Positions 3,327 through 42,878 of a DNA stretch of 64,000 nucleotides are shown piece by piece. The DNA lies in NCBI GenBank assembly GCA_016699615.1, contig CP064984.1, positions 2,488,721-2,552,720 of the forward strand, in the 5' to 3' direction. Position 1 is the first letter of the stretch. Every line of letters begins with the position of its first letter. The position numbers were made by a program, and so were the translations under genes. The notes under the pieces are model-generated. The model searched no databases. It was not told the origin of the DNA and was given only the letters and a program-made list of their open reading frames with translations. The stretch comes from Sphingobacteriales bacterium (GTDB lineage Bacteria; Bacteroidota; Bacteroidia; Chitinophagales; JADIYW01).

Positions 3327-4184
3327 ATGGCATCTGGTTTTTTTGCAATATTAGATGATATTGCTATGTTGATGGATGATGTTGCTACAATGGGAAAAAT
3401 AGCAACTAAAAAAACAGCAGGAATTCTTGGAGATGATTTGGCAGTAAATGCAGAAAAAGCAACTGGATTTGTAGCCTCAAGAGAGATTCCTGTACTTTGG
3501 GCAATTACAAAAGGTTCATTTTTGAATAAATTAATCATCTTACCAATAGTTTTTTTGTTGAATTTCTTTTTTCCATTTTTAATAAAAATTATTCTAATAT
3601 TTGGTGGATTGTTTTTAGCCTATGAAGGTGCAGAAAAAATTATTGAATTTTTCTTTCATAAAAAAACAGCTGTTGAAGTTGAAGAAAATACAGAAGAAAA
3701 AGATGTAGAAACCTTAGAAAAAGAAAAAATTAAATCTGCCATTACTACTGATTTTATTTTGTCTTTAGAAATTGTAATTATAGCATTGAGTACAGTAATT
3801 GGAAAACCATTGCTTACTCAAATTGCTGTGGTATCTTGTGTTGCAATTATTGCTACAATTGGAGTTTATGGTATAGTTGCATTAATTGTACGTATGGACG
3901 ATGCTGGAGTTTTTTTAGTGAATAAATCAAATGAAACAGGTATACGATCTAAACTACGCTTTGGGTTGATTAAATTAGTGCCATTAATTATTAGACTTTT
4001 GGCTATAATTGGTACATTTGCCTTGTTGCTAGTAGCTGGTGGCATATTTGCACACAATAGTCACTATATACATGATTTATTTCATGGTTTCCCAGAATTA
4101 TTAAGAGATTTAATTTTAGGCTTAGTATTTGGCACAGCAGTAGTTGGAGTAGTAACTTTAGTAAAAAAGATACTAAAAAAATAA
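3327..4184 (+). CDS. DUF808 family inner-membrane protein (YedI-like)
   Basis: N-terminus MASGFFAILDDIAMLMDDVA...KTAGILGDDLAVNAE is the DUF808 hallmark. Multiple transmembrane segments. Confidence 0.85.
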   Translation: MASGFFAILDDIAMLMDDVATMGKIATKKTAGILGDDLAVNAEKATGFVASREIPVLWAITKGSFLNKLIILPIVFLLNFFFPFLIKIILIFGGLFLAYEGAEKIIEFFFHKKTAVEVEENTEEKDVETLEKEKIKSAITTDFILSLEIVIIALSTVIGKPLLTQIAVVSCVAIIATIGVYGIVALIVRMDDAGVFLVNKSNETGIRSKLRFGLIKLVPLIIRLLAIIGTFALLLVAGGIFAHNSHYIHDLFHGFPELLRDLILGLVFGTAVVGVVTLVKKILKK

Positions 4185-4208
4185 TTTTTGTATAGAATAT
4201 AGATGTAT

Positions 4209-7079
4209 TTAGAAATACTCTAACTTATATTTTTGTGTAAAATCCCAAAGTGCAATATATAAAGAAGAGTTTAATAAATGTAATCGTTTTCTAAATGGTG
4301 CTGAGATAGTGAAAATTCCTCCAGAGGCATCTAAACAAAAATCTGCAAATTTATCACTATCTTGGAAATTATCGACAATTATTCCTGTTTCTTTGTCTCT
4401 TTGTATAATAGGAATTTTATTACTGTCTTGCCCATTGTATTTATGTATTATATATATATAATTTCTAATTATATCTAGTAATTTAAATTTGTAATCGGTT
4501 TCTAAAATATTGTTTCTTGAAGTTGTAATGTTTTTTACTAGAATATTAAAGTTTTCAATCTCTACTTCATTCATATTATCATAACTGATATTATTAATAT
4601 CAGTTAATTTATCTTTATACTCAGAAAATATGTCGTCATTTACTTCCTTAATAATTCCAAACATTTCATTTAGCTCATTATTTTTAAAAATAAGATCAAT
4701 TGCATCTCTGATATCACTAAGAAATCTGATAAAATGATTTTTTGATTCTTTGTTTTTAGAGTTTGTTTTAAAGTAAAACTCTGGTAACATACTATATAGT
4801 TTTTTAAATGTTTTGTTGCTTACATCATTCTCTGATAGTTTGTACACAATAAGTAATCTAAAAAATAACATAATAATATTTCTTTCAGCAATTTGATGAT
4901 TTGAATCATGTAGTTGATTTGCTTGAAGTAATAAATAGTTGATATGCCAGTAAGTGTACTGTTCTATATTCTTGTTAAATGAAATAGAATAAGTAAGAAA
5001 ATCAACATACAGATATGCATTGAAATCTTTGTGTTTTAATAAGATTTCATTTATGATTTCATTTTCTAAACTTGTAAAAATTTTATTAATATTAATTATA
5101 TTTTCGTTGTCATTGAGTGGTTTATACGTACATTTTTTAGGATAATTCTCAGAATTAAAAAATTTAATATACCTTTGATATTTTTTAATATCAAAATTTT
5201 TTAAATTATCTAAAATAGAATCCATCATAAAGTTTGATATTTCATGAAGAAAAACACTAAGAAAAATATAAGGTTCAAAAATATGTTGTTGATTTATTTT
5301 TAATGAGTTTTTTGTACTATTTATTCCAATTTTATCAGAAATATAAACTAATTGAGGACTTATGTTTTCATAAATTTTATGTCTAAATTTGGGGCTTACA
5401 TTTCTATATGCAGATGTGTTGTAGTGTAGATGGTATCCAAAATATTTATATAATGCATCATAAATACTTAATTGTTGATGAATAGCACCTTTATAATCTA
5501 AATTAATATCTGTTAAATCTGCTGTTCTATGAGTTTGAAAATATCTATCATGGAATGCGCTTTCAAAGATTCTACAAGATTCTGTTAATTCATTTATAAT
5601 CTCACTTTTAGGCTTGACTTCATAGATATTATATGAATTATTGATTTCATAATCATTAATTTTCTGTAAGATTTGTATTTTTAGAAATACCTCTAGTTCT
5701 ATAAATGAGCCAAAAAGTACCTCATCTTGTATTACATTATTAAAAATATTACATATAGAAATTACTTTTTCTATTAATATTTTAGGAGCACCAATTTTCT
5801 TTAGTTTTTCTTCATATCGAATAATTGTTGATGGTTTTACAGCACATCTGTCATCTAAAATATTATCAATTGAGTACCAATGCTCATTTTCATCGAATGT
5901 ATCAATGATATCATTAATATTCATTCTGAAGGATACAGAAGTAATACATTCTCTAATATTATTTATTATTGCTTCTGATTTAGTGTTTAAGAAGTTTAGA
6001 TATTTTATAAATAACTCAATATTGCTTTGTTCAAAATTTATTAAATCATTAATAACCATATCGCCTCTTCCAAGTGTAAGAGAAGCATTGTTGGTGCGTC
6101 CCAAATTACCGAAATCAGTTATCTCATCGAGCTTAGTAATAATTGCATCATAAGTTTTTCTAAAATGACCTGGCTTTACGAACCATTTGGTGACAATTTG
6201 TAAATTAGAAATATCAATATCCAATTGTTTGCTTGTATTCTTAAAGAAATCTGTATGGACTCCAAAATTTGAAATTGTATCTACAAATAAGTGGTTGTTG
6301 AATAAACTTAAAGTATCTTGAGGTTCTTCTTCTTTGCTGTCCTGCCAATTAAATAGTAGAGAATTTTCTAGAAATATTTTTTTTTCCTTACTATCTTGTT
6401 CACATAAATCATTAATAGATAGCTCTCTAATGTCTGATAATAGTTTAGATAATTTATTAGTTGAATTAGAAAATAACATCAAAATTAACTCATGACTTCC
6501 TAAATTCAATAATATTATATTTTCTATACCACTAATTTTATCATTTATACAGTTTATAACTTTATTTAGATAATAAGAGCCATTACCAATTAAAATACTT
6601 GGGTTTAGTTTTAATTGAGTAGAAACAATAAATGGATTTTTCTCTGTGAAATCAGTTGAGGTTATTTTTTTTATTTTTTCTAAAAAATAATTTTGTTCTA
6701 TCTTTGGTGTTTTTATCTTTGGTATTAATGTGCTAAAAACTTGGAAATCAAAATTTCTAGGTTTATATTCCAAATCAAGAATGGAGGAAGGAAAAGGACA
6801 GAAGTTTCTATTGGCAAATTCAGTATCATCAGTTAGAGTAAAAATCAGTAAATCAAATTTTCCAAATAGGAAATAGCCATTGGGAGAATAAAGCTGATGG
6901 TCATCATTAGGCTTATATTTATCAGAATCTTTAAAATGTTTATTTAATTCTTCTTTGTATTTTTTGAAGATAGGTGATTTATCATTTTTGAAATTTTCAT
7001 CGTAGAATTTGGTTGTTGGAGTATCGTTAGGTGTAGTAACAAAAGAAATGAACGCACTCAGATTTTCAAAATTTATCAT
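4209..7079 (-). CDS. hypothetical protein, 956 aa, no recognisable domain (last gene of the AT-rich 3-gene cassette)
   Basis: Long uninterrupted ORF in about 22% G+C DNA, so it is unlikely to be open by chance. No Walker A, nuclease, HTH or transmembrane motif seen. Extremely N/K/I-rich. Confidence 0.75.
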   Translation of the reverse strand: MINFENLSAFISFVTTPNDTPTTKFYDENFKNDKSPIFKKYKEELNKHFKDSDKYKPNDDHQLYSPNGYFLFGKFDLLIFTLTDDTEFANRNFCPFPSSILDLEYKPRNFDFQVFSTLIPKIKTPKIEQNYFLEKIKKITSTDFTEKNPFIVSTQLKLNPSILIGNGSYYLNKVINCINDKISGIENIILLNLGSHELILMLFSNSTNKLSKLLSDIRELSINDLCEQDSKEKKIFLENSLLFNWQDSKEEEPQDTLSLFNNHLFVDTISNFGVHTDFFKNTSKQLDIDISNLQIVTKWFVKPGHFRKTYDAIITKLDEITDFGNLGRTNNASLTLGRGDMVINDLINFEQSNIELFIKYLNFLNTKSEAIINNIRECITSVSFRMNINDIIDTFDENEHWYSIDNILDDRCAVKPSTIIRYEEKLKKIGAPKILIEKVISICNIFNNVIQDEVLFGSFIELEVFLKIQILQKINDYEINNSYNIYEVKPKSEIINELTESCRIFESAFHDRYFQTHRTADLTDINLDYKGAIHQQLSIYDALYKYFGYHLHYNTSAYRNVSPKFRHKIYENISPQLVYISDKIGINSTKNSLKINQQHIFEPYIFLSVFLHEISNFMMDSILDNLKNFDIKKYQRYIKFFNSENYPKKCTYKPLNDNENIININKIFTSLENEIINEILLKHKDFNAYLYVDFLTYSISFNKNIEQYTYWHINYLLLQANQLHDSNHQIAERNIIMLFFRLLIVYKLSENDVSNKTFKKLYSMLPEFYFKTNSKNKESKNHFIRFLSDIRDAIDLIFKNNELNEMFGIIKEVNDDIFSEYKDKLTDINNISYDNMNEVEIENFNILVKNITTSRNNILETDYKFKLLDIIRNYIYIIHKYNGQDSNKIPIIQRDKETGIIVDNFQDSDKFADFCLDASGGIFTISAPFRKRLHLLNSSLYIALWDFTQKYKLEYF

Positions 7080-7171
7080 GTAATACTAGCTTTCAAATTA
7101 CCAAAAATAAATAAACAAGCTTCAAATTCTAAATTAGAAGCAACTAATTTTCTAATGAAATAATTTTTGAA

Positions 7172-7588
7172 TTAAAAGTTATATTTATCTAACTTAATCT
7201 TAGAACCTTCATTGAAATCATCATTAGCTCCAAATGCCTTACTTGTAACATCTATAAATCTAAATCCGTTATGGGCATTATCTTTACCATAATAGAGTAA
7301 ATAATTTTTATTTCTGTTATAATGAGCAGGAAATAATACATTTATATAAAACTCTTCGAAAGTTTTAATATCATTTTCAGTTAGAATATTATTAGGTTTA
7401 GGCTTGTCAGACACTGGGGTTGAATATCCTTTGGCAATATTAATGTATGCCCAATCTAAAAGGTGAGAAATTCTATTTCTGTACATAAGCTTGTTGTCAT
7501 TTTTATACTCATGTATTACCATATATTCCACAAATTGGTACTCATACATAAAATCTTCAGCGATTGCTTCCTCAATTCTGTAATCCAT
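7172..7588 (-). CDS. hypothetical protein, 138 aa (middle gene of the cassette)
   Basis: Intact ORF on the same strand, 92 nt upstream of the 956-aa gene. No recognisable motif. Confidence 0.55.
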   Translation of the reverse strand: MDYRIEEAIAEDFMYEYQFVEYMVIHEYKNDNKLMYRNRISHLLDWAYINIAKGYSTPVSDKPKPNNILTENDIKTFEEFYINVLFPAHYNRNKNYLLYYGKDNAHNGFRFIDVTSKAFGANDDFNEGSKIKLDKYNF

Positions 7589-7812
7589 TATAAATTACTT
7601 TTTGTTGTATTGAAAATAATGATATTATATTGTAGACTTGATGTCTTCATTTTGTTTTGATTGTCCAAGATACGAATATATTTTTAAATGAATAATTTTT
7701 AACATAAAATTAATAAAGAAATTGTACATCTAATTATTATATAATTGTTTAAAAATAAAATCTTTATATCAAATTTAATGACATAATATTTTAACTAAAG
7801 TTTTTCTTTTAA

Positions 7813-9197
7813 TCATTTTGTGGATAACTTATTTTTTTGTAGAAATACTCTATTATTTATGATATCAACTTCTGTACCATTTTCATTATAATTAACCTTT
7901 GTAACAAAAAAACCTATATCGTTATGTTCTTCTCTTCCAATTTTAGTATTTGGAATTTTTATTAATTCCTCTATATCAAAAATATAATTTTCTAAATCTA
8001 AATCTTTTGGTGGTATTAAGCATCCTGGTATGTTAATTTGATAATCAGAAAGTGACTTATATGCTTGCGCATCTTCTGCTACATCGCTGTTTTTGTGAAT
8101 ATGTCCACAATATCCAATATTTATAATATTTTCACTTAGATATTTTTGGGTTTCCTTTGTTTTTTTAGGCGTATATTCTTTAAATATTCTACAGTTTGAG
8201 TGCAGTTATCAGAAATGTATTCAAGTGGATGATGCAGAATTAGTATGTTGAAATCATTTTTACTGTCCTTTCTATTAAAACCACAATTTTTTATTCTATT
8301 CTCATTAATGATATAAAGATTTTTGTAATTTAGATGATCTCCATTGGTAGATAACCATGAAGTATTTAAATTCAATATTCCTATATTTAGTCTATTTTTT
8401 ATTTCTATTTTTTTGAAACCATTCACAAAATTATCATCAACAAAAGAAACTATATTAATATTATTTTTATCCTTATAATTTTCTTTGAGTTTATCTATTA
8501 ATGATATGTAGTTTTTGTATGTTTCAGAATAATTATAGTACTTTAAAATATTATGTTTAATTTTAAAAATATTATTAGAAATATCTTGAGTAGCACTTTT
8601 TATATTATAGTAAGTTATTTCTTTTAGCATTTCTATGCCATTCGTCTTTCTTCCATTATATTTTTCTTTATCAAATATTTTACATGTTTTATGTTCAAAG
8701 ATTTCTTCTATAACTTTATCTTTAATTTTTTTACGATGTACATCATCAAATAATTTATGTTTATCTCTACTGTTAATTATTTTTGAACATGTACAGTCGT
8801 CCTCAATTTCACACAAGTTTTTTTCTATAAATTGATTTACATTTCTTTCAATACTATTTAAAAACGATTTTACCTCATCACATCTTGTACAAGTATAACA
8901 AATATCTGTGCATAAGTCGTGGTTTCCCCCAGCAAAAACAATATATATGTTTTTGTTAACATCATTATTTATCCCACAAATAATATTATTAACAAATTCT
9001 GAGAAACATTTGATTGATACTTCACAATTATTATTGCGGTCAATTATATCACCACCAAATATTATAATAAAAGAATTGCTTTCGTCCTTTATATCATTAA
9101 TGTAAGATACTATTTTTTTAAATAATAAATTATATTTTGTAATGTTCTCTTTTTTAATATGTAAGTCAGTAAAATGTAATACAATAAAATCACTCAT
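7813..9197 (-). CDS. calcineurin-like metallophosphoesterase with Cys-cluster insert (one frameshift in a homopolymer at 8160-8166)
   Basis: Motifs in order: HFTDLH (DxH), GGDIIDR (GDxxDR), GGNHD (GNHD/E), ILILHHP. The final GHIH motif is read in the next frame downstream of 8160 (..NIGYCGHIHKNSD..) to the stop at 7813-7815. Adding one A to the A7 run joins both frames. Confidence 0.8.
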
Positions 9198-9245: not shown

Positions 9246-11434
9246 TTACTTATAAAATTGCTTACCTGCATTTGCATAGTCTACTAAAATTTGTGCAGGT
9301 TTAAATCTAGCACCATATTTTTGTTCTAATTCTTCTAAAATACGAACAGCTTCTTTAGCACCAATACTGTCTACATATCTAAATGGACCACCTCTAAATG
9401 GAGGAAATCCTAATCCAAATACTGCTCCAATATCACCATCTAAAGGATTTTCAATAATATTTTCTTGTAGGCAAAGTGCAGCTTCGTTTACCATTGCCAT
9501 AGCACAACGCATATGAATTTCATTGGCATCAAATTTCTTTCTGCTATTGCCACCATAGTAATTATAAATTTCGCTATCTACTTGTCCATTAACTTTCTTG
9601 CCTTTTTCGTCGTATTTGTAAAATCCTTTTTTGTTCTTACGACCTTTGTAACCTGCTTTAGAAATCTCTAAAAGCGTTTTACTTACTTTGAAATCAGGAC
9701 GTAGTTTAAGCATTTCTGTCATTAACTCACCACTCATAATATGCGCACCAACATCAATACCTACTTCATCAGCTAATGTAATTGGACCAACTGGGAAACC
9801 AAATAAATTCATTTCTTTGTCTATTTGTAGTATATCACCACCTTCATCCAACAATAATTGTGCTTCATTCATTAATGGTGCTAAGATTCTTGTTGTGTAA
9901 AATCCTGGTCCATCATTTACAACAATACATGTTTTTCCTTGCCTTACGCCAACTTCATAGCATGTTGCCACAACCCAATCAGCCGTTTGCTCTGTCTTAA
10001 TGATTTCTAATAATGGCATTTTTGGAACAGGAGAGAAGTAATGCATACCAATTACCAACTCAGGATTTTTTGATTTTGCAGCTACATGTTTAATTGGCAA
10101 CGCAGATGTATTTGTTGCAAAAATTGTATCAGGCTTAGTGTTTGCTTCGCAATCAGCTAAGATACGTTGCTTTAAACTTAAGTCTTCAAATACTGCTTCA
10201 ATAATCATATCTTGATTATCTAAATCACTATAATTTAAAGAACCAGATAGCATAGCCATTTTCTCTTCTAATTCAATTTTTGTAATTGCTTTTTTAGATA
10301 CTTTCTTATTATAATCAGTATATACTTGTTGGAATGCAGAATTAATCATGTCTTGATTAATGTCTTTTAATAATACATGGATATCATCATCAATAGAAAC
10401 TTGAGCAATACCAGCGCCCATGAATCCAGCGCCAACCATTCCAATACGATGAATTTTACGAATTAATTTTTCATCATAAGGATTTTTCTTCTTATCAGTC
10501 ATTGCAAAGAAAATATTGATTAACTGACGCGATACTGGAGACAAAATAAGTGCTTCAAAGTTTTCTACTTCAGCTTGGTATCCTTTTTCTTCACCGTCAT
10601 TCCAGCCAACTTTTACACATTCAATAATTTTGTAAGGTGCAGGATAGTTGCCATGTGCTTGTTTGTCTACCATTTTTTTAGCTTGGTCAAACACAATATT
10701 ATTCACCAATGGTGCTTCTAAAATTAAGTTTGTAAGTTTTGCTTGCAATGAAGGAAATCCAGATTTTACAGTATCTAAATTTATTTCATTACGTTCTCTT
10801 TTTATTGGTTGTTCAAGAACTTCTAATGCTAATTTTTGAGCGCTTTTTGCAAGGCATTTACGTGTACAACTTTATCTACCAAACCCATTTTTAATGCAGG
10901 ATAAGGAAATATGTTTTTGCCAGTGAGCATCATATCTAATGCTGTTTGCAAGCCTACAAGACGTGGCAAACGTTGTGTACCACCACCACCAGGCAATAAA
11001 CCTAATTTTACTTCAGGTAGTGCCATTTTTGTAGATTTGTCATTGCTACAAATACGTGCATGGCATGCAAGTGCAATTTCTAATCCTGCTCCTAGTGCAT
11101 TTCCATGTATTGCTGCAACAATTGGTTTCTTTGATTGCTCAATTCTTTTTAAAATCGTATGGCCTTTTTCTGCGATAGGTTTCCAGTCTCCTGGTTTTTC
11201 AACTTTTTGAAATGCATCTATATCAGCGCCTGCAATAAAATCTTTTTTTCTACTAGCAAGTACATACGCTTTTATAGAATTGTCTTGTTCTAATTCATTA
11301 AACACATCATCAAATAATCCAATTAAATCTGGTCCTATTTTATTGATTTTTTCGTTTATTTGATTCATCCAAATTGTACAAACACCATTGGTATTTTTTT
11401 CAATTCGTATATACTCTTCTCTTTTAATTGACAT
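9246..11434 (-). CDS. fadB: multifunctional fatty-acid oxidation protein: enoyl-CoA hydratase plus 3-hydroxyacyl-CoA dehydrogenase (frameshift at 10833-10837)
   Basis: The N-terminal 201-aa ORF is crotonase-like (FIAGADI, GNALGAGLEIALAC). The 500-aa ORF carries the HAD Rossmann motif VGAGFMGAGIA. One extra A in the A5 run gives continuous ..ALQKALKKLALEVLEQP.. Confidence 0.9.
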
Positions 11435-16426: not shown

Positions 16427-17169
16427 TTATTTATTAAAGCCAAGTACATCATCCATCGTGTACACACCTTTTTTGCCAATCAACCATTCTGCGGCAACTA
16501 ATGCACCACCAGCAAATCCTTTTCTGTTGTGCGCAATATGTTTTAGTTCTATGGTATCAATGTCAGAGTTGTAAAATACAGTATGTGTGCCTGGTACATT
16601 TGCTTCTCTTAATGAAATAATGTCTAATGTATTTTTATCATGGCTTACTTCATTTTTCCAATTACTTTTTGCATCATGCCATTTTAGTATATCTTCGGCT
16701 GCGTACAATGCTGTTCCACTTGGTGCATCTTTTTTTTCAGTGTGGTGTATTTCTTCCATAATGACATCATAGTCTTGATGTTGATTCATGATTTTAGCGA
16801 GTTGTCTATTTATTTCAAAAAATATATTCACACCAATGCTAAAATTTGGTGCATATAATAAACTTTTATTTTCTGCTAATGCAATGTTTTTAATACTATC
16901 TAATTGATGCAACCATCCAGTACTTCCAACCACAACAGGCACATTTGCTTCAAAGCACCATTGAATATTTTCTACTGCGGTGTGTGGCGATGTAAATTCA
17001 ATAGCTACATCACATGCTTGTAATTGCTCTATTGTTGTTGTTTGTCTATTGTCAATATCTACAATTAATGAAATATTGTATTTGTTATTTTGCAGTGCAG
17101 CATTTTTGTCGTTAGCTATTTCATGTATAGCTTTTCCCATTTTCCGTATCCAATCAGTGCAATGTTCAT
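16427..17169 (-). CDS. dapB: 4-hydroxy-tetrahydrodipicolinate reductase (frameshift at 17140-17143)
   Basis: DapB body (EFTSPHTAVENI, VVVGSTGW, EEIHHTEKKDAPSGTA). The true N-terminus MNIALIGYGK lies upstream in another frame. One extra A in the A4 run restores GYGKMGKAI. Confidence 0.9.
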
Positions 17170-36967: not shown

Positions 36968-38010
36968 ATGGCAGTATTGAACTTTGGTGGACACGACGAA
37001 AATGTAGTAACTCGTGAAGAATTTCCACTTGCTAAAGCAAAAGAAGTATTAAAAGATGAAACAATTGCTATAATTGGATATGGCGTGCAAGGTCCAGGTC
37101 AAGCATTAAATTTAAGAGATAATGGTTTTAATGTTATTATCGGACAAAGAAGACCATCAAAATCTTGGGATAAAGCAGTGGCTGACGGTTTTGTTGAAGG
37201 ACAAACTTTATTCGAACCAGAACAAGCTTTAGAAAAAGCTACTATCATCATGTATTTATTATCTGATGCTGCTCAAATAGAAATGTGGCCAACAGTAAAA
37301 AAACATTTAACAGCAGGAAAAGCATTATATTTCTCTCACGGATTTGGCGTTACATACAAAGACAGAACAGGAATCATTCCACCAGCTGATGTAGACGTAA
37401 TTCTTACAGCACCAAAAGGTTCTGGAACTTCACTTCGTAGATTATTCTTAGAAGGAAAAGGACTAAACTCATCTTATGCTATCTTCCAAGATGCTACAGG
37501 AAATGCATATAATAGAACAATTGCATTAGGCATTGGCATTGGCTCTGGTTATTTATTTGAAACTACTTTCCAAAAGAAGTTTATTCAGACCTTACAGGCG
37601 AGCGTGGCGTTTTGATGGGTGCATTAGCAGGAATCATGGAAGCACAATATAATGTATTAAGAGAAAATGGTCATTCACCATCAGAAGCTTTCAACGAAAC
37701 AGTAGAAGAATTAACAGAATCATTAATAAAATTAGTTTCTGAAAATGGAATGGATTGGATGTATGCCAACTGTTCTACAACAGCACAACGTGGTGCTTTA
37801 GATTGGAAAGGTCCATTTAGAGAAGCAACATTGCCAGTATTCAAAGAATTATATGCAAAAGTTGCAGCAGGAGAGGAAGCACAACGTTCTATCGATACAA
37901 ACTCTCAACCAGATTATAGAGAGAAATTAGAAGTAGAATTAAAAACACTAAGAGATAGCGAAATGTGGCAAGCAGGTAAAACTGTTCGTAGCCTAAGACC
38001 AGGAAAATAA
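36968..38010 (+). CDS. ilvC: ketol-acid reductoisomerase (frameshift at 37572-37575)
   Basis: IIGYGVQGPGQALNLRDNG Rossmann motif. One extra A in the A4 run gives ..FQKEVYSDLTGERGVLMGAL.., joining the 215-aa and 132-aa ORFs. Confidence 0.93.
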
Positions 38011-38061: not shown

Positions 38062-38145
38062 TGTTATTAGTTATTAGTTATTAGTTATTAGTTATTAGTT
38101 ATTAGTTATTAGTTATTAGTTATTAGTTATTAGTTATTAGTTATT
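38062..38145. repeat. heptanucleotide microsatellite (GTTATTA) in about 12 copies
   Basis: Perfect tandem 7-mers read directly from the sequence between the convergent ilvC and SnoaL-like genes. Confidence 0.95.
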
Positions 38146-38184
38146 TGTTAAAAAACACATTAGAAATAGTTATAAATATACAAA

Positions 38185-39270: not shown

Positions 39271-39649
39271 AGGTTTTATATATAAATATGAAATTATTTG
39301 TACAAATGTACAGATAATCTTTATCAATTTTCGTTCCACAATTCACAATGTATTTGTCTTTTCTATTGATATGTTTGAAATTTTTAGTGTTAAATATTTC
39401 ATAAAACTATTTTATTTTTTATTTTATATTGTAGTGCATAAAATGCTTATTATTAATTAGTTGAATCTTTTTATGTAAAGTATTTATTCTTTCAAATCAT
39501 ACATATTATTATTTTTTACTTTGATTTTTAATTTTATGTATCTATATTTGTTATTAAGAAATGTTAATAACTATCTTTTTATTGTTAATAAAACTGAATA
39601 TATGCAATATATGAATAATATGGAACACAAAACTAAAACTAGCTTGAGT

Positions 39650-42600
39650 ATGAATAAGAAGAGCCTACTTGTTTTTATTTTATCACTCTTTTCAGTTGCA
39701 TTTTTATTTGCAGTTGATAAAAGTGATTCGCAAACAATTTGTAGAGGAACTACAATTGCTGTAGATGGCATTAATTATACACCATACAATGATACAACTA
39801 TTGAATATACCATTCCTGATATATTAATGGTAGAAGATACAAATGTTATTCTCAGTGTAACAGTATTGCCATTACCAACCAAATCAATAGACACAGCAAT
39901 TTGCGTAGGTGCTACTATCAATATAGATGGCGTAGATTACACACCAGCAGCAGACACAGCAGTAGAATATACAATCTTAGGTGTTGATGACGAATGTGAT
40001 ACACTTGCAACAGTAAATATTACACACAAAGAAATACCAACCAAAACTATAGACACAGCAATTTGCGTAGGTGCTACCATCAATATAGATGGCGTAGATT
40101 ATACACCAGCAGCAGATACAGCAGTAGAATATACAATCTTAGGTGTTGATGACGAATGTGATACACTTGCAACAGTAAATATTACACACAAAGAAATACC
40201 AACCAAAACTATAGACACAGCAATTTGCGTAGGTGCTACCATCAATATAGATGGCGTAGATTATACACCAGCAGCAGACACAGCAGTAGAATATACAATT
40301 TTAGGTGTTGATGACGAATGTGATACACTTGCAACAGTAAATATTACACACAAAGAAATACCAACCAAATCAATAGACACAGCAATTTGCGTAGGTGCTA
40401 CCATCAATATAGATGGCGTAGATTATACACCAGCAGCAGATACAGCAGTTGAGTATACAATTTCAGGTGAAAATTTAGAATGTGATACACTTGCAACAGT
40501 AAATATTACACACAAAGAAATACCAACCAAAACTATAGACACAGCAATTTGAGTAGGAGCTACCATCAATATAGATGGCGTAGATTACACACCAGCAGCA
40601 GACACAGCAGTTGAGTACGTAATTCTAGGCGTAGATGACGAATGTGATACACTTGCAACAGTAAATATTACACACAAAGCAATACCAACCAAAACTATAG
40701 ACACAGCAATTTGCGTAGGAGCAACTATCAATATAGATGGCGTAGATTACACACCAGCAGCAGACACAGCAGTAGAATATACCATTTTAGGTGTTGATTA
40801 CGAATGTGATACACTTGCAACAGTAAATATTACACACAAAGAAATACCAACCAAATCAATAGACACAGCAATTTGTGCTGGAACAACTATTAATATTGAT
40901 GGCGTAGATTACACACCAGCAGCAGACACAGCAGTAGAATATGTAATTTTAGGTGTTGATGACGAATGTGATACAAATGCTACAATGAATATTACAATTA
41001 GACCGTTGCCAACACTTACAATTGACACAACAAATAATATTGGCGAAATTATTACAATAGATGGTGTAGATTATTCTCCAATAAGCGATACTTCAGTTGT
41101 ATATATCATTCCAGCAGCAGTTATCGAAGACTGTGATACCGTAGTTACTGTAAATATTGATGCAATTTTATTGCCACCTACTGTTACTCCAACTGATGAT
41201 ACAATTTGTATTGGTACTAAAACGTCTTTAGATGCATCAGGAATAGATAATGCAATAATTAAATGGTACAATAATCCAGCACTTACAAATCCAATTCAAT
41301 TAGGTAGTACATTAATTACACCTATTTTAAATTCTACAACAACATATTATGCTACACAAACAGTTTATGGTCTAACAAGTGAACCAACTGAAGTTATAGT
41401 TACAGTACAAAGTCAAAGTCCATTACCAACTTTAAGTATTCCAGCAGGACTTATATGTCAAGCTACAGATGTAGTTGTAAGTTCTTCATCAAGTGCTACA
41501 ATATTCTATTCTGATGCTGGCTATACAGTTATTGGAAATGGTTCAGAATTAACTTTAACAAATATCCAAGCAACACAAGTAATTTATGCAAAAGATACCA
41601 CTAATGCTGGTTGCCCAAGTAATATTACAAGTATTAAAATAACAGTTGAACCTAAACTAACAAAACCAAAAGTAAAAGGAACTACAATTTGTAGTGGCAA
41701 TACAGTAACACTTGTTGGTGCATCAGATTCAACTCGCTGGTATGATGATTCATTATTAACGAATGTAGTTAATATAGGAAAAACATTTATCACACCAGTT
41801 TTAGATACAACAACAATGTATTATCTACGTAACGAAGCTGAAGGCAAATGTTCAAGTGATTCTATAATTGTTACAGTAACAGTAAATGAAACACCAGACA
41901 AACCAATAGTTGGTGAAGCTTCAACTTGCTACGGACAGTTTGCAACAGTAGTTGTGGAAGGAGAGAATATAAAATGGTATTCAGACCAACAATTAACTAA
42001 TTTAGTATTCTTTGGTTCTACTTTAAATACACCAATTTTATATAGAGATACAATCTATTATGTTACACAAACCAAAAATAACTGTGTAAGTGATAGTGCA
42101 ACTGTAAATATAAAAGTATATACTAAACCAGATAGACCAATTATCAATTCAATACCAGTTATCTGTGAAGGAACTGAATTAGTTATTACAGTGAAAAATG
42201 AAGGAGAAGGTCAAACTTATAATTGGGTAGAGACCAAATAACTTTACATCTAGTGATATGAATCCAGTGATTGAAAATGTAACTTTAGCTAATGCTGGAA
42301 CATATACTGTTTATGCATCATTAGGCAATTGCAAATCTGAAGTGGCAACAACAATAGTATATGTTGATAAAAACCCAGTTGCTGATGCTGGTGCTGATGT
42401 TACAATATTCCAAAATCAACCAACTGTACTACAAGGTACTGGAGGTCAAATTTATTCTTGGACACCAGATGATAATTTAAGTACAAACAATATTAGCAAT
42501 CCTACCTTTGTTAGTGAAGATACAGGTGTATTTGCAATAGAATTAACAGTTTGGGACGGTGGTTTCGGTTGTTTAGACAAAGATACAGTTGTAATTACAG

Positions 42601-42878
42601 TTGTTCCAGTAGAAAAACTTATTATTCCAGATATTATTACACCAAATGGTGATGGCGTAAACGATGAATGGTATATTCAATATTTAGAAAATGTCAATTC
42701 ACCATACACATTAAGTGTATATGCTCGTGGTGGTGCTTTAGTAATGAGTACTTCTAGCTACAACCAACAGTGGAAAGGAACTTATAAAGATAAGGAACTA
42801 CATGATGGAGCATATTGGTATGTCTTAGAATTTGAAAATGGTGTGATTTATAAAGGTACATTAACCATTAAAAGATAA
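39650..42878 (+). pseudogene. T9SS type-B (CHU_C) adhesin with seven 162-bp tandem repeats, interrupted by an in-frame TGA (40550-40552) and a frameshift (about 42228-42233)
   Basis: Signal peptide MNKKSLLVFILSLFSVAFLFA. ORFs 39521-40552 and 40985-42241 share one frame. The third ORF (42258-42878) carries IIPDIITPNGDGVNDEWY. The classic junction ..YNWVGPNNFTSSD.. is restored by removing one base. Confidence 0.8.
39872..41005 (+). repeat. 7 tandem near-identical 162-bp (54-codon) coding repeats
   Basis: The ataccaaccaaa unit starts at 39872, 40034, 40196, 40358, 40520, 40682 and 40844, an exact 162-bp period. A degenerate eighth copy follows. Confidence 0.95.

Follow-up and report, generated by a model that had tools for sequence, protein, structure and literature searches.

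In the ToxIN/PhiTE pair, the phage escapes the host module by carrying a copy or mimic of the module's own neutralizer, acquired from the host (PMC3475682), and antitoxin mimics and orphan antitoxins of phages serve as neutralizers of DarTG (PMC10760071, PMC11825919). Other conflict systems exchange their effectors: TIR and calcineurin-type domains are interchangeable in this role (PMC8195603). A further arrangement is that of DSR2/DSAD1, for which the published account describes a sensor of roughly 1,000 amino acids (aa) without a nucleoside triphosphatase (NTPase) motif, an NADase effector and inhibition by a small phage protein (PMC10981675). Here, we describe a three-gene cassette that combines features of all of these, found in a 64,000-nt stretch of a Sphingobacteriales bacterium genome (GenBank assembly GCA_016699615.1, contig CP064984.1, positions 2,488,721–2,552,720; hereafter, the window). 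It encodes a calcineurin-like metallophosphoesterase (MPE; gene A), a small protein of 138 aa (gene B) and a protein of 956 aa (gene C). The trio recurs at different sites in other genomes, the large protein is found with different effectors, and phage-like contigs carry gene B together with its upstream spacer at 99.7–100% nucleotide identity. We conclude with moderate confidence, from comparative analysis, that the cassette is a conflict or defence system. The logic is familiar (sensor, effector, small regulator and antitoxin-style capture by phages); the parts are new.

The three genes lie on the minus strand between a DUF808 gene and fadB/fadA, the arrangement already described in an earlier note made from the sequence of the window. 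The features of the locus, with L002 and L003 denoting metagenome contigs that carry intact copies of the cassette, are as follows.

3327–4184: DUF808 gene, left neighbour of the cassette
4209–7079, minus strand: gene C, 956 aa (open reading frame (ORF) call)
7080–7171, minus strand: spacer between gene B and gene C, 92 bp (from the ORF coordinates)
7172–7588, minus strand: gene B, small protein, 138 aa (ORF call)
7589–7812, minus strand: AT-rich spacer between gene A and gene B, 224 bp
7813–9197, minus strand: gene A, calcineurin-like MPE, 461 aa when intact (Pfam Metallophos)
9197–8136, minus strand: gene A ORF as read in the window, 353 aa (ORF call; the remainder, about 8170–7813, is out of frame)
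8170–8172, minus strand: frame-breaking lesion in gene A (alignment with L002 and L003)
6660–7835: union of the window segments present in phage-like contigs (99.7–100% identity)

The cassette has a G+C content (GC) of 0.240, the lowest of 237 sliding 5-kb windows (mean 0.299, s.d. 0.016), compared with 0.34 for ahcY and fadBA. The drop had been noted from hand counts (13 of 60 at 4681–4740 and 24 of 60 at 1861–1920), which proved exact. Asn, Lys and Ile together make up 0.28–0.41 of the three cassette proteins and 0.20–0.24 of the neighbouring proteins, bearing out the richness in these residues that the note had remarked on. Around the cassette, searches for flanking repeats and att sites returned AT-rich chance matches only, and promoter and terminator scans within it gave no excess over chance. 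TAnnTTTG motifs are present in the A/B spacer (7770–7777) and in the B/C spacer (7102–7109), no more often than expected by chance; the 224-bp A/B spacer may hold a candidate internal promoter.

Whether homologues of the three genes occur together elsewhere was the question on which the proposal of an undescribed defence-like cassette had been made to depend. They do. Among the neighbourhoods that we examined, which represent about 24 distinct loci out of 378 family representatives, the order MPE, small gene, large gene on one strand is found in the window and in five other loci (L001, L008, L009, L010 and L027), the large proteins of which are 26–66% identical. The closest of these, L001, is the contig that encodes the large protein P0001. 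It carries an MPE of 470 aa, a small protein of 147 aa and a large protein of 962 aa, with 46%, 71% and 64–66% identity, respectively, to their window counterparts and about 70% nucleotide identity across genes B and C. The insertion sites differ: fadB/DUF808 in the window, fmt and an SLT/SBP gene in L001, a serine recombinase and a type I hsdM gene in L008 (a Chitinophagales metagenome-assembled genome), and other genes elsewhere. In 22 of 24 loci, the GC of the system falls below that of the flanks, by up to 16 points, in hosts with a GC of 29–61%; together with the position of the cassette as the lowest-GC 5 kb of the window, this argues for horizontal transfer. In L010, genes for a VWA (CoxE-like) protein and a MoxR-type AAA_5 ATPase immediately precede the trio in the same orientation (3556–5823).

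The MPE is linked to the large family in 11 of the roughly 24 distinct loci, in three gene orders. If MPEs make up less than about 1% of genes, we infer that chance adjacency at such a rate is negligible. Besides the order of the window, four loci (L026, L030, L036 and L029) have the large gene first, followed by the MPE and a gene of 75–80 aa. In four others (L011, L016, L017 and L018), a gene of 65–76 aa precedes the large gene, which is arranged tail-to-tail with a gene for a giant WD40 protein; across family loci, the large gene as a rule has a short ORF immediately before it. The MPE is also replaced altogether: three homologues of the large protein (P0015, P0023 and P0111) carry a TIR domain fused to the C terminus (1.4e-15 in P0023), and the P0023 locus (L012/L013) consists of a 159-aa gene and the large::TIR gene, with no MPE. 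Several further family loci have other or unidentified partner genes. Pfam finds no TIR in the window trio, which separates it from Thoeris and other TIR systems. The implication of the earlier note that TIR has no bearing on the matter is wrong for the family, in which TIR is an alternative effector.

The giant WD40 proteins are of more than one kind. The one in L011 (6532–10059) has an MPE N terminus followed by WD40 repeats, and this locus contains a second MPE as well. The one in L018 (3295–7524) combines an Mrr-like N terminus, a NACHT-like P-loop (GDYGTGKT … LLIFDAFDE) and WD40 repeats; that in L016 (3020–6247) has the same P-loop and WD40 repeats, its N terminus being lost at the contig end, and L017 retains a WD40 fragment only. 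A common label of MPE-WD40 for L016–L018 was rejected, as the MPE N terminus is present in L011 only. These proteins may be partners of the large protein or merely adjacent NLR-like defences. The 98 flanking ORFs of the family loci include two type I methyltransferases (in two loci), a type IV restriction enzyme, a GajB-like helicase, two integrases, two IS110 transposases and phage portal and capsid genes.

The large protein is the conserved core of the system. The earlier note had called it an orphan, which it is not: a phmmer search with gene C recovered 378 representative clusters at E ≤ 1e-3 (279 at 1e-10 and 77 at 1e-30), mostly proteins of 900–1000 aa that align over their full length at mostly 25–36% identity. 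The family emerged from this exhaustive search. A word-indexed protein search, its pre-filter seemingly saturated by this AT-rich protein of low complexity, had given one homologue (P0001, 64–66% identity), first scans of GTDB and metagenomes with two peptide patterns had found no relatives, and the family is rare, with one relative among 185,579 GTDB species representatives under the patterns used. In an alignment of 42 sequences, comprising gene C as reference and 41 homologues aligned over 900–1000 aa at 20–65% identity, six residues are invariant (K157, E197, E613, R741, D917 and G921) and about 20 more are nearly so.

An AlphaFold2 model of gene C built from this alignment has a mean predicted local distance difference test score (pLDDT) of 83 and a predicted template-modelling (TM) score of 0.88. 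The N-terminal portion of about 380 aa is α/β and the C-terminal portion of about 550 aa is helical. The N-terminal part resembles the double ferredoxin-like barrel of chlorite dismutase and coproheme decarboxylase, at a Foldseek E value of about 1e-2 and a TM score of about 0.5 over the target; Foldseek searches of the model against the PDB and BFVD gave nothing at E < 1e-3. Sequence and profile searches found no match to gene C in Pfam, NCBIfam or the PDB, so that among the characterized families checked, by these and by Foldseek, none claims the protein as its own. As the note had stated, there is no P-loop: gene C has no G-x4-GK[ST] motif, its conserved columns form none, no ATPase family matches, and Pfam returns nothing for either the 138-aa or the 956-aa protein. 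A reading of gene C as a Cas10-like palm or cyclase, prompted by the tandem ferredoxin-like folds, a D-x2-GG hairpin at 917–921 and a weak Csm2 match, was dropped for want of search support. We suggest that gene C may act as a sensor or regulatory platform; given its six invariant residues, all but one charged, and a fold type that binds ligands, it could itself be an enzyme or a ligand binder.

Comparison with large sensor proteins brings out what is shared and what is particular to the cassette. The TIR-fused homologues P0015, P0023 and P0111 follow the same overall logic as DSR2. However, there is no similarity to DSR2 in sequence or fold (the Foldseek search against the PDB, which yielded nothing at E < 1e-3, includes DSR2 structures), the effector of the cassette is usually a separate MPE gene, and the candidate inhibitor is encoded by the host and only secondarily borne by phages. 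The STAND/NLR-like ATPases Avs and bNACHT likewise have swappable TIR, calcineurin-type and restriction endonuclease effectors (PMC8195603), and proteins of this kind stand tail-to-tail with the large-family gene in the four loci L018, L016, L017 and L011. In contrast to them, the 956-aa protein lacks a Walker A or NTPase motif and is predicted to consist of a double ferredoxin-like barrel and a helical domain.

The match to catalogued defence genes is confined to the MPE. None of 42 large-family members matches a hidden Markov model of PADLOC-DB v2.0.0, which has no model for the large or the small protein, and the window trio gives only a noise match to Csm2 (0.0074) apart from a weak match of the MPE to PDC-S10 (9.3e-5), its sole PADLOC hit. 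Class-2 MPEs of the family match PDC-S60 (1.8e-12) and 'Effector endonuclease' (1.7e-8). The MPE is thus what the cassette shares with PDC-S60, PDC-S10 and the CBASS-type 'Effector endonuclease', marginally so for the window type, whereas the large and small proteins are unmatched and there is no cyclase, SMC or ATPase partner. Literature searches likewise turned up no described system with this architecture, and within this coverage the statement that the cassette matches no named system holds.

Gene A belongs to the calcineurin-like MPEs by its match to Pfam Metallophos (PF00149; E 1.5e-8, 35.7 bits against a gathering cut-off of 21.5), the sole Pfam domain that it contains. The intact protein has the motifs D11xH13, G49D50, G91N92H93D94, H322H323 and G365HxH368, and GNHD is followed by an insert of about 200 aa, Cys-rich and mostly helical. 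A radical-SAM reading of C96-x3-C-x2-C was rejected because the Cys spacing varies among orthologues. The complete motif set claimed in the earlier note applies to the intact 461-aa form; in the window copy, the GHIH motif lies out of frame, past the lesion at about 8170. The PUA-Calcineurin-CE-HAD module (bioRxiv 10.64898/2026.01.15.699771) differs in that gene A has Metallophos only, with no PUA or HAD detected. The nearest PDB relatives by profile are SMPDL3A, which is a nucleotide phosphodiesterase (1.7e-6), and SbcD/Mre11 (2e-4); since both match, gene A may be either a nuclease or a nucleotide phosphodiesterase.

This resemblance raises the alternative that the trio is a housekeeping or niche module acting on nucleic acids or nucleotides, AT-rich and patchy in distribution by coincidence. 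It could be, for example, a repair nuclease like SbcCD/Mre11 whose partner is not an ATPase, or a phosphodiesterase under regulation. The MPE does share with SbcCD and Mre11–Rad50 the pairing of a nuclease-like protein with a large partner, and its N-terminal motifs resemble those of SbcD/Mre11; many family loci sit among housekeeping genes, and within the population sampled for the species the cassette seems to have reached fixation. Yet the match to the SbcD model of NCBIfam (TIGR00619; E 8.8e-5) covers only the N-terminal 90 residues and reaches 22.4 bits against a cut-off of 77.65, and no SbcC/Rad50-type ATPase, coiled-coil partner or P-loop accompanies the MPE. The insertion site differs between related species, the GC is lower than that of the flanks at nearly all loci, the distribution is mobile and patchy, and the rarity of the family, its TIR fusions and the capture of one subunit by phages all speak against a housekeeping role, which we consider highly improbable.

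In the window record, gene A is interrupted. The lesion is a 1-nt deletion with an adjacent substitution at about 8170–8172 (ATATGCTGCCT to ATATAC-GCCT). The earlier note had placed it in the A7 homopolymer at 8160–8166, but that run is identical in the window and in the intact metagenome copies (L002 and L003); the lesion lies a few bases upstream. Adding one base near 8166 yields the 461-aa ORF down to 7813, GHIH included, and the repaired protein matches the 470-aa L001 orthologue over the whole length at 46% identity. Seven independent metagenome assemblies of the host type, from the same species, extend to gene A; all agree with the intact form, five of them with complete copies. Intact 461-aa copies are listed for L002, L003, L039 and L046–L051, and contig ends interrupt gene A in L043 and L051. 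Where compared, host-type assemblies are 99.8–99.9% identical to the window, and outside the lesion a single position in 5 kb distinguishes the cassette from the metagenome copies.

Two housekeeping genes of the window show similar damage. fadB is split near 10841 by a 1-nt deletion into ORFs of 201 aa (10829–11434) and 500 aa (9246–10748) and encodes 729 aa in every metagenome copy, which suggests single-base assembly errors in the window record. An ilvC-like gene for ketol-acid reductoisomerase (36968–38010) is apparently split near 37612 into overlapping ORFs of 215 and 132 aa, likely by a frameshift. It could be argued that the cassette is a dead remnant in this genome: the deletion removes GHxH, and the public record encodes a truncated 353-aa product. 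The seven intact assemblies, the near-identity of the rest of the cassette and the single-base lesions in fadB and apparently in ilvC, a pattern typical of assembly error, tell against this, and we judge a truly frameshifted effector possible but unlikely. Given these intact copies and neighbouring lesions, we consider an error of sequencing or assembly no less likely than a true pseudogene; from the alignments, the frameshift of gene A is probably an assembly error.

Gene B, the captured component, has no match in Pfam, NCBIfam, PHROGs, PADLOC, PDB profiles, INPHARED, PLSDB or IMG/VR, and a single-sequence AlphaFold2 model (pLDDT 43) is unusable. Its sole detectable cassette homologue is the 147-aa protein at the equivalent position in L001 (71% identity). 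The orphan label that the earlier note had attached to it is wrong as well, given this homologue and the copies of identical sequence on phage-like contigs. Exact matches to the 138-aa protein are indexed in 72 blocks of public assemblies, and among the ten distinct places listed for it, five are host-type and five phage-type. The phage-type contigs are L004–L007 and L050–L055 (L052–L055 being shorter excerpts of the L004–L007 records), which amount to five distinct contigs, and in addition L014 and L015. The former were found through an exact match to intact gene B, and L014/L015 through P0009, a truncated protein of the large gene. They come from at least six samples and different assemblers, which makes chimeric assembly unlikely; one record is 50.8 kb long. 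The segments of the window that they carry are the following.

L005 and L006: window 7139–7796, 658 bp, 100% identity (blastn)
L007: window 7139–7743, 605 bp, 100% identity (blastn)
L004: window 6722–7835, 1,114 bp, one mismatch (blastn)
L014: window 6660–7737, 1,079 bp, 99.7% identity (blastn)
L015: window 6660–7345, 687 bp and then the contig end; overlaps L014

The captured segments have sharp junctions with non-host sequence on both sides. In all of the phage copies, gene B is intact and at least 149 bp upstream of it are kept, the upstream boundaries falling at 7737, 7743, 7796 and 7835; downstream, trimming extends to 33 bp past the stop codon and never into the ORF. The longest copies hold 23 nt from the end of gene A and 118–138 codons from the start of gene C, both truncated, from which it follows that the captured DNA came from the cassette. 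These ends, and the presence of gene B in the trio before the species of the window and of L001 diverged, indicate that the transfer ran from the host cassette to the phage, and the near-identity of the copies indicates that it was recent. At least four junction configurations are found: the insert of L004 is inverted relative to the backbone compared with those of L005–L007, and that of L014 abuts a 337-aa gene. N-terminal fragments of gene C remain open in two copies, with 125 aa in L004 (1261–1638) and 153 aa in L014 (724–1185; P0009), and could be inert debris or a dominant-negative decoy.

The backbones of these contigs are phage-like. They encode a tyrosine integrase (phrog_1, 3.6e-30), phrog_16275, phrog_29585, YopX, a GIY-YIG/NUMOD3 endonuclease and a 132-aa DUF7448/phrog_2650 protein (8.4e-47; L004 6578–6976), which has tblastn matches in 159 GenBank phages at 55–59% identity. 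Those phages infect unrelated hosts (Bacillus, SPO1-like, as well as Pseudomonas, Escherichia and others), an unusually wide range for a small phage protein. The stretches of phage-type contigs that were read (up to 11 kb) contained no gene for a capsid, portal or terminase protein, and INPHARED and IMG/VR hold no close relatives of the element, including any without the insert. Proteins of the Acb2/Tad1-hairpin family, known as anti-CBASS and anti-Thoeris sponges, are encoded in L005 (3539–3766) and L006 (2354–2641), along with two or three orphan N6/N4 DNA methyltransferases (L005 1693–2475 and 5479–6159; L007 131–1647). These genes are likely a counter-defence cluster of the phage-like elements.

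The phage copies could be passive passengers: about 1.2 kb of host DNA picked up by illegitimate recombination and now eroding. Gene B could then be any type of subunit, such as an adaptor, chaperone or transcription factor; its capture would carry no information on its function, and the cassette might or might not serve defence. An identity of 99.7–100% marks a very recent event, retrieval by exact match favours intact copies of gene B, the junctions show no special features, and no relative of the small gene is present in GenBank phages or IMG/VR. Against this stand the four or more junction and rearrangement states in at least six samples, which imply that the lineage with the insert became more widespread and more varied after the capture. 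Trimming has come to within 33 bp of the stop and 149 bp of the start of gene B and never into it, all substitutions are confined to the eroding segment edges, and L014, found through a fragment of the large gene, also has intact gene B. Passive carriage is, in our view, distinctly unlikely.

The cassette fits the pattern of bacterial conflict systems: a mobile, low-GC unit with a conserved large core, interchangeable hydrolytic or NADase effectors and, now and then, restriction–modification or NLR-like neighbours. In the toxin–antitoxin (TA) and abortive-infection precedents, the host-module components that phages carry are neutralizers. On both counts we adopt the following model, which we regard as about as probable as its negation. 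The cassette would be a horizontally mobile, three-component conflict system, most likely directed against phages and of the abortive-infection type. Gene C would sense or regulate; gene A would be the exchangeable effector, a nuclease or a (cyclic) nucleotide phosphodiesterase, whose role is taken in other branches by the TIR domain at the C terminus of the large protein. Gene B would be a regulatory subunit peculiar to its lineage, silencing the system or titrating the trigger, and the phage-like elements would have copied it, with the upstream spacer, from the host cassette as a ready-made counter-defence. In a variant of this model, gene B would be a transcriptional repressor travelling with a spacer that contains its operator. 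That gene B specifically is the off-switch we put forward tentatively, as a claim more doubtful than the model in general. The same caution applies to the fullest version, in which gene C would found a family of NTPase-free immune sensors, of a predicted fold without solved relatives, with interchangeable effectors (an MPE in trans or a TIR in cis) and phages would have taken the off-switch with its promoter region; this, too, is possible but doubtful.

The likeness to ToxIN and DarTG escape lies in the phage-like element holding the cassette's own gene B and upstream spacer at 100% identity. There are differences: the neutralizer of ToxIN is an RNA and DarG-like neutralizers are enzymes of known fold, whereas gene B has no assigned fold or family and its neutralizing role is a proposal. 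The same precedents admit another explanation, a selfish addiction module of the TA type, or an inter-bacterial or anti-plasmid module, in which toxicity would come from the MPE, alone or together with the large protein, and gene B would supply the antidote. The phage copy would then protect the phage from collateral activation when host expression is shut off. Mobility and low GC fit such a module as well as they fit defence, a small gene beside enzymatic genes and its copy in phages are consistent with antitoxin capture, and both capture or mimicry of ToxI (PMC3475682) and orphan antitoxin-like phage genes (PMC11825919) are on record. But the cassette has three genes, including a protein of 956 aa that no TA system has; a conserved protein of some 950 aa in which six residues, all but one charged, never vary is atypical of simple TA pairs, and the TIR fusions and NACHT-WD40 neighbours indicate sensing of an immune type. 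We hold an addiction module, together with the protection from collateral activation that it would offer the phage, to be very unlikely, and in practice it overlaps with abortive-infection defence.

Several observations weigh against a defence function and against the roles assigned above. No component of the cassette matches a validated defence protein, and in the window itself the effector gene carries a frameshift. Scans and tblastn detected no member of the large family in IMG/VR, PLSDB or INPHARED. We found no strains with an empty site: every fadA context seen carries the cassette. The constancy of intact gene B in phages is partly a matter of ascertainment, most contigs having been retrieved by a match to the intact protein, with L014 as one independent check, and neutral hitch-hiking of gene B would also fit the data, as 100% identity leaves no time for decay. 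The small proteins of the window type and of the L008/L009/L010 type show no similarity by BLASTP or hhalign (probability 0.1%); because the middle genes of the sub-branches have no detectable homology, 'small regulator' may cover unrelated proteins. Finally, the genes that flank family loci are mostly housekeeping genes. An association with known defence genes, which the earlier note had proposed to look for, is seen in part, in that some loci adjoin type I restriction–modification genes, integrases or NACHT-WD40 genes. Its broader suggestion of an undescribed defence-like cassette withstood the tests applied to it, being upheld by the mobile, conserved trio, the low GC, the swapping with TIR and the phage-borne gene B. 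The comparisons show that the trio is conserved and mobile, that its effectors are swapped and that the transfer from host to phage is recent; from these we infer a defence function, the roles of the individual proteins and neutralization by the phage copy at the strengths given for each.

Just beyond the left end of the window and about 6 kb from the cassette, L002 (19679–20005) contains a 108-aa ORF with a weak Toxin-JAB1 match, which hints at other conflict genes nearby. An indel at 17139 near the start of dapB gives a 237-aa product, compared with 247 aa in some metagenome copies; the population contains both lengths, with 237 aa in L041. A heptanucleotide microsatellite (GTTATTA) of 12.6 copies with 98% matches (38063–38150) separates the ilvC-like gene from a convergent 130-aa ORF and could be a slippage-prone tract. 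At 39873–40996 there is a 162-bp tandem repeat of 6.9 copies with 92% matches, encoding 54-aa units (IDTAICVGATINIDGVDYTPAADTAVEYTI); its gene is broken into ORFs at 39521–40552, 40985–42241 and 42258–42878 and looks like one large surface or adhesin-type protein. No rRNA or tRNA genes were found in the window.

If the model is correct, the cassette represents a defence family whose core protein has no relative in Pfam, PADLOC or the PDB and which current defence finders would therefore miss. Its exchange of effectors, from a separate MPE to an MPE in another gene order to a fused TIR domain, would make it suited to studying how a sensor without an NTPase controls its output. The phage-borne gene B would point to a probable inhibitor and to the phage lineage employing it, and would document the capture of a defence component by phages from hosts in natural communities, a natural analogue of ToxI capture that involves a protein and is seen while nucleotide identity still stands at 100%. 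Searching phage contigs for such 'stolen' operon fragments could then reveal new defence systems together with their regulators.

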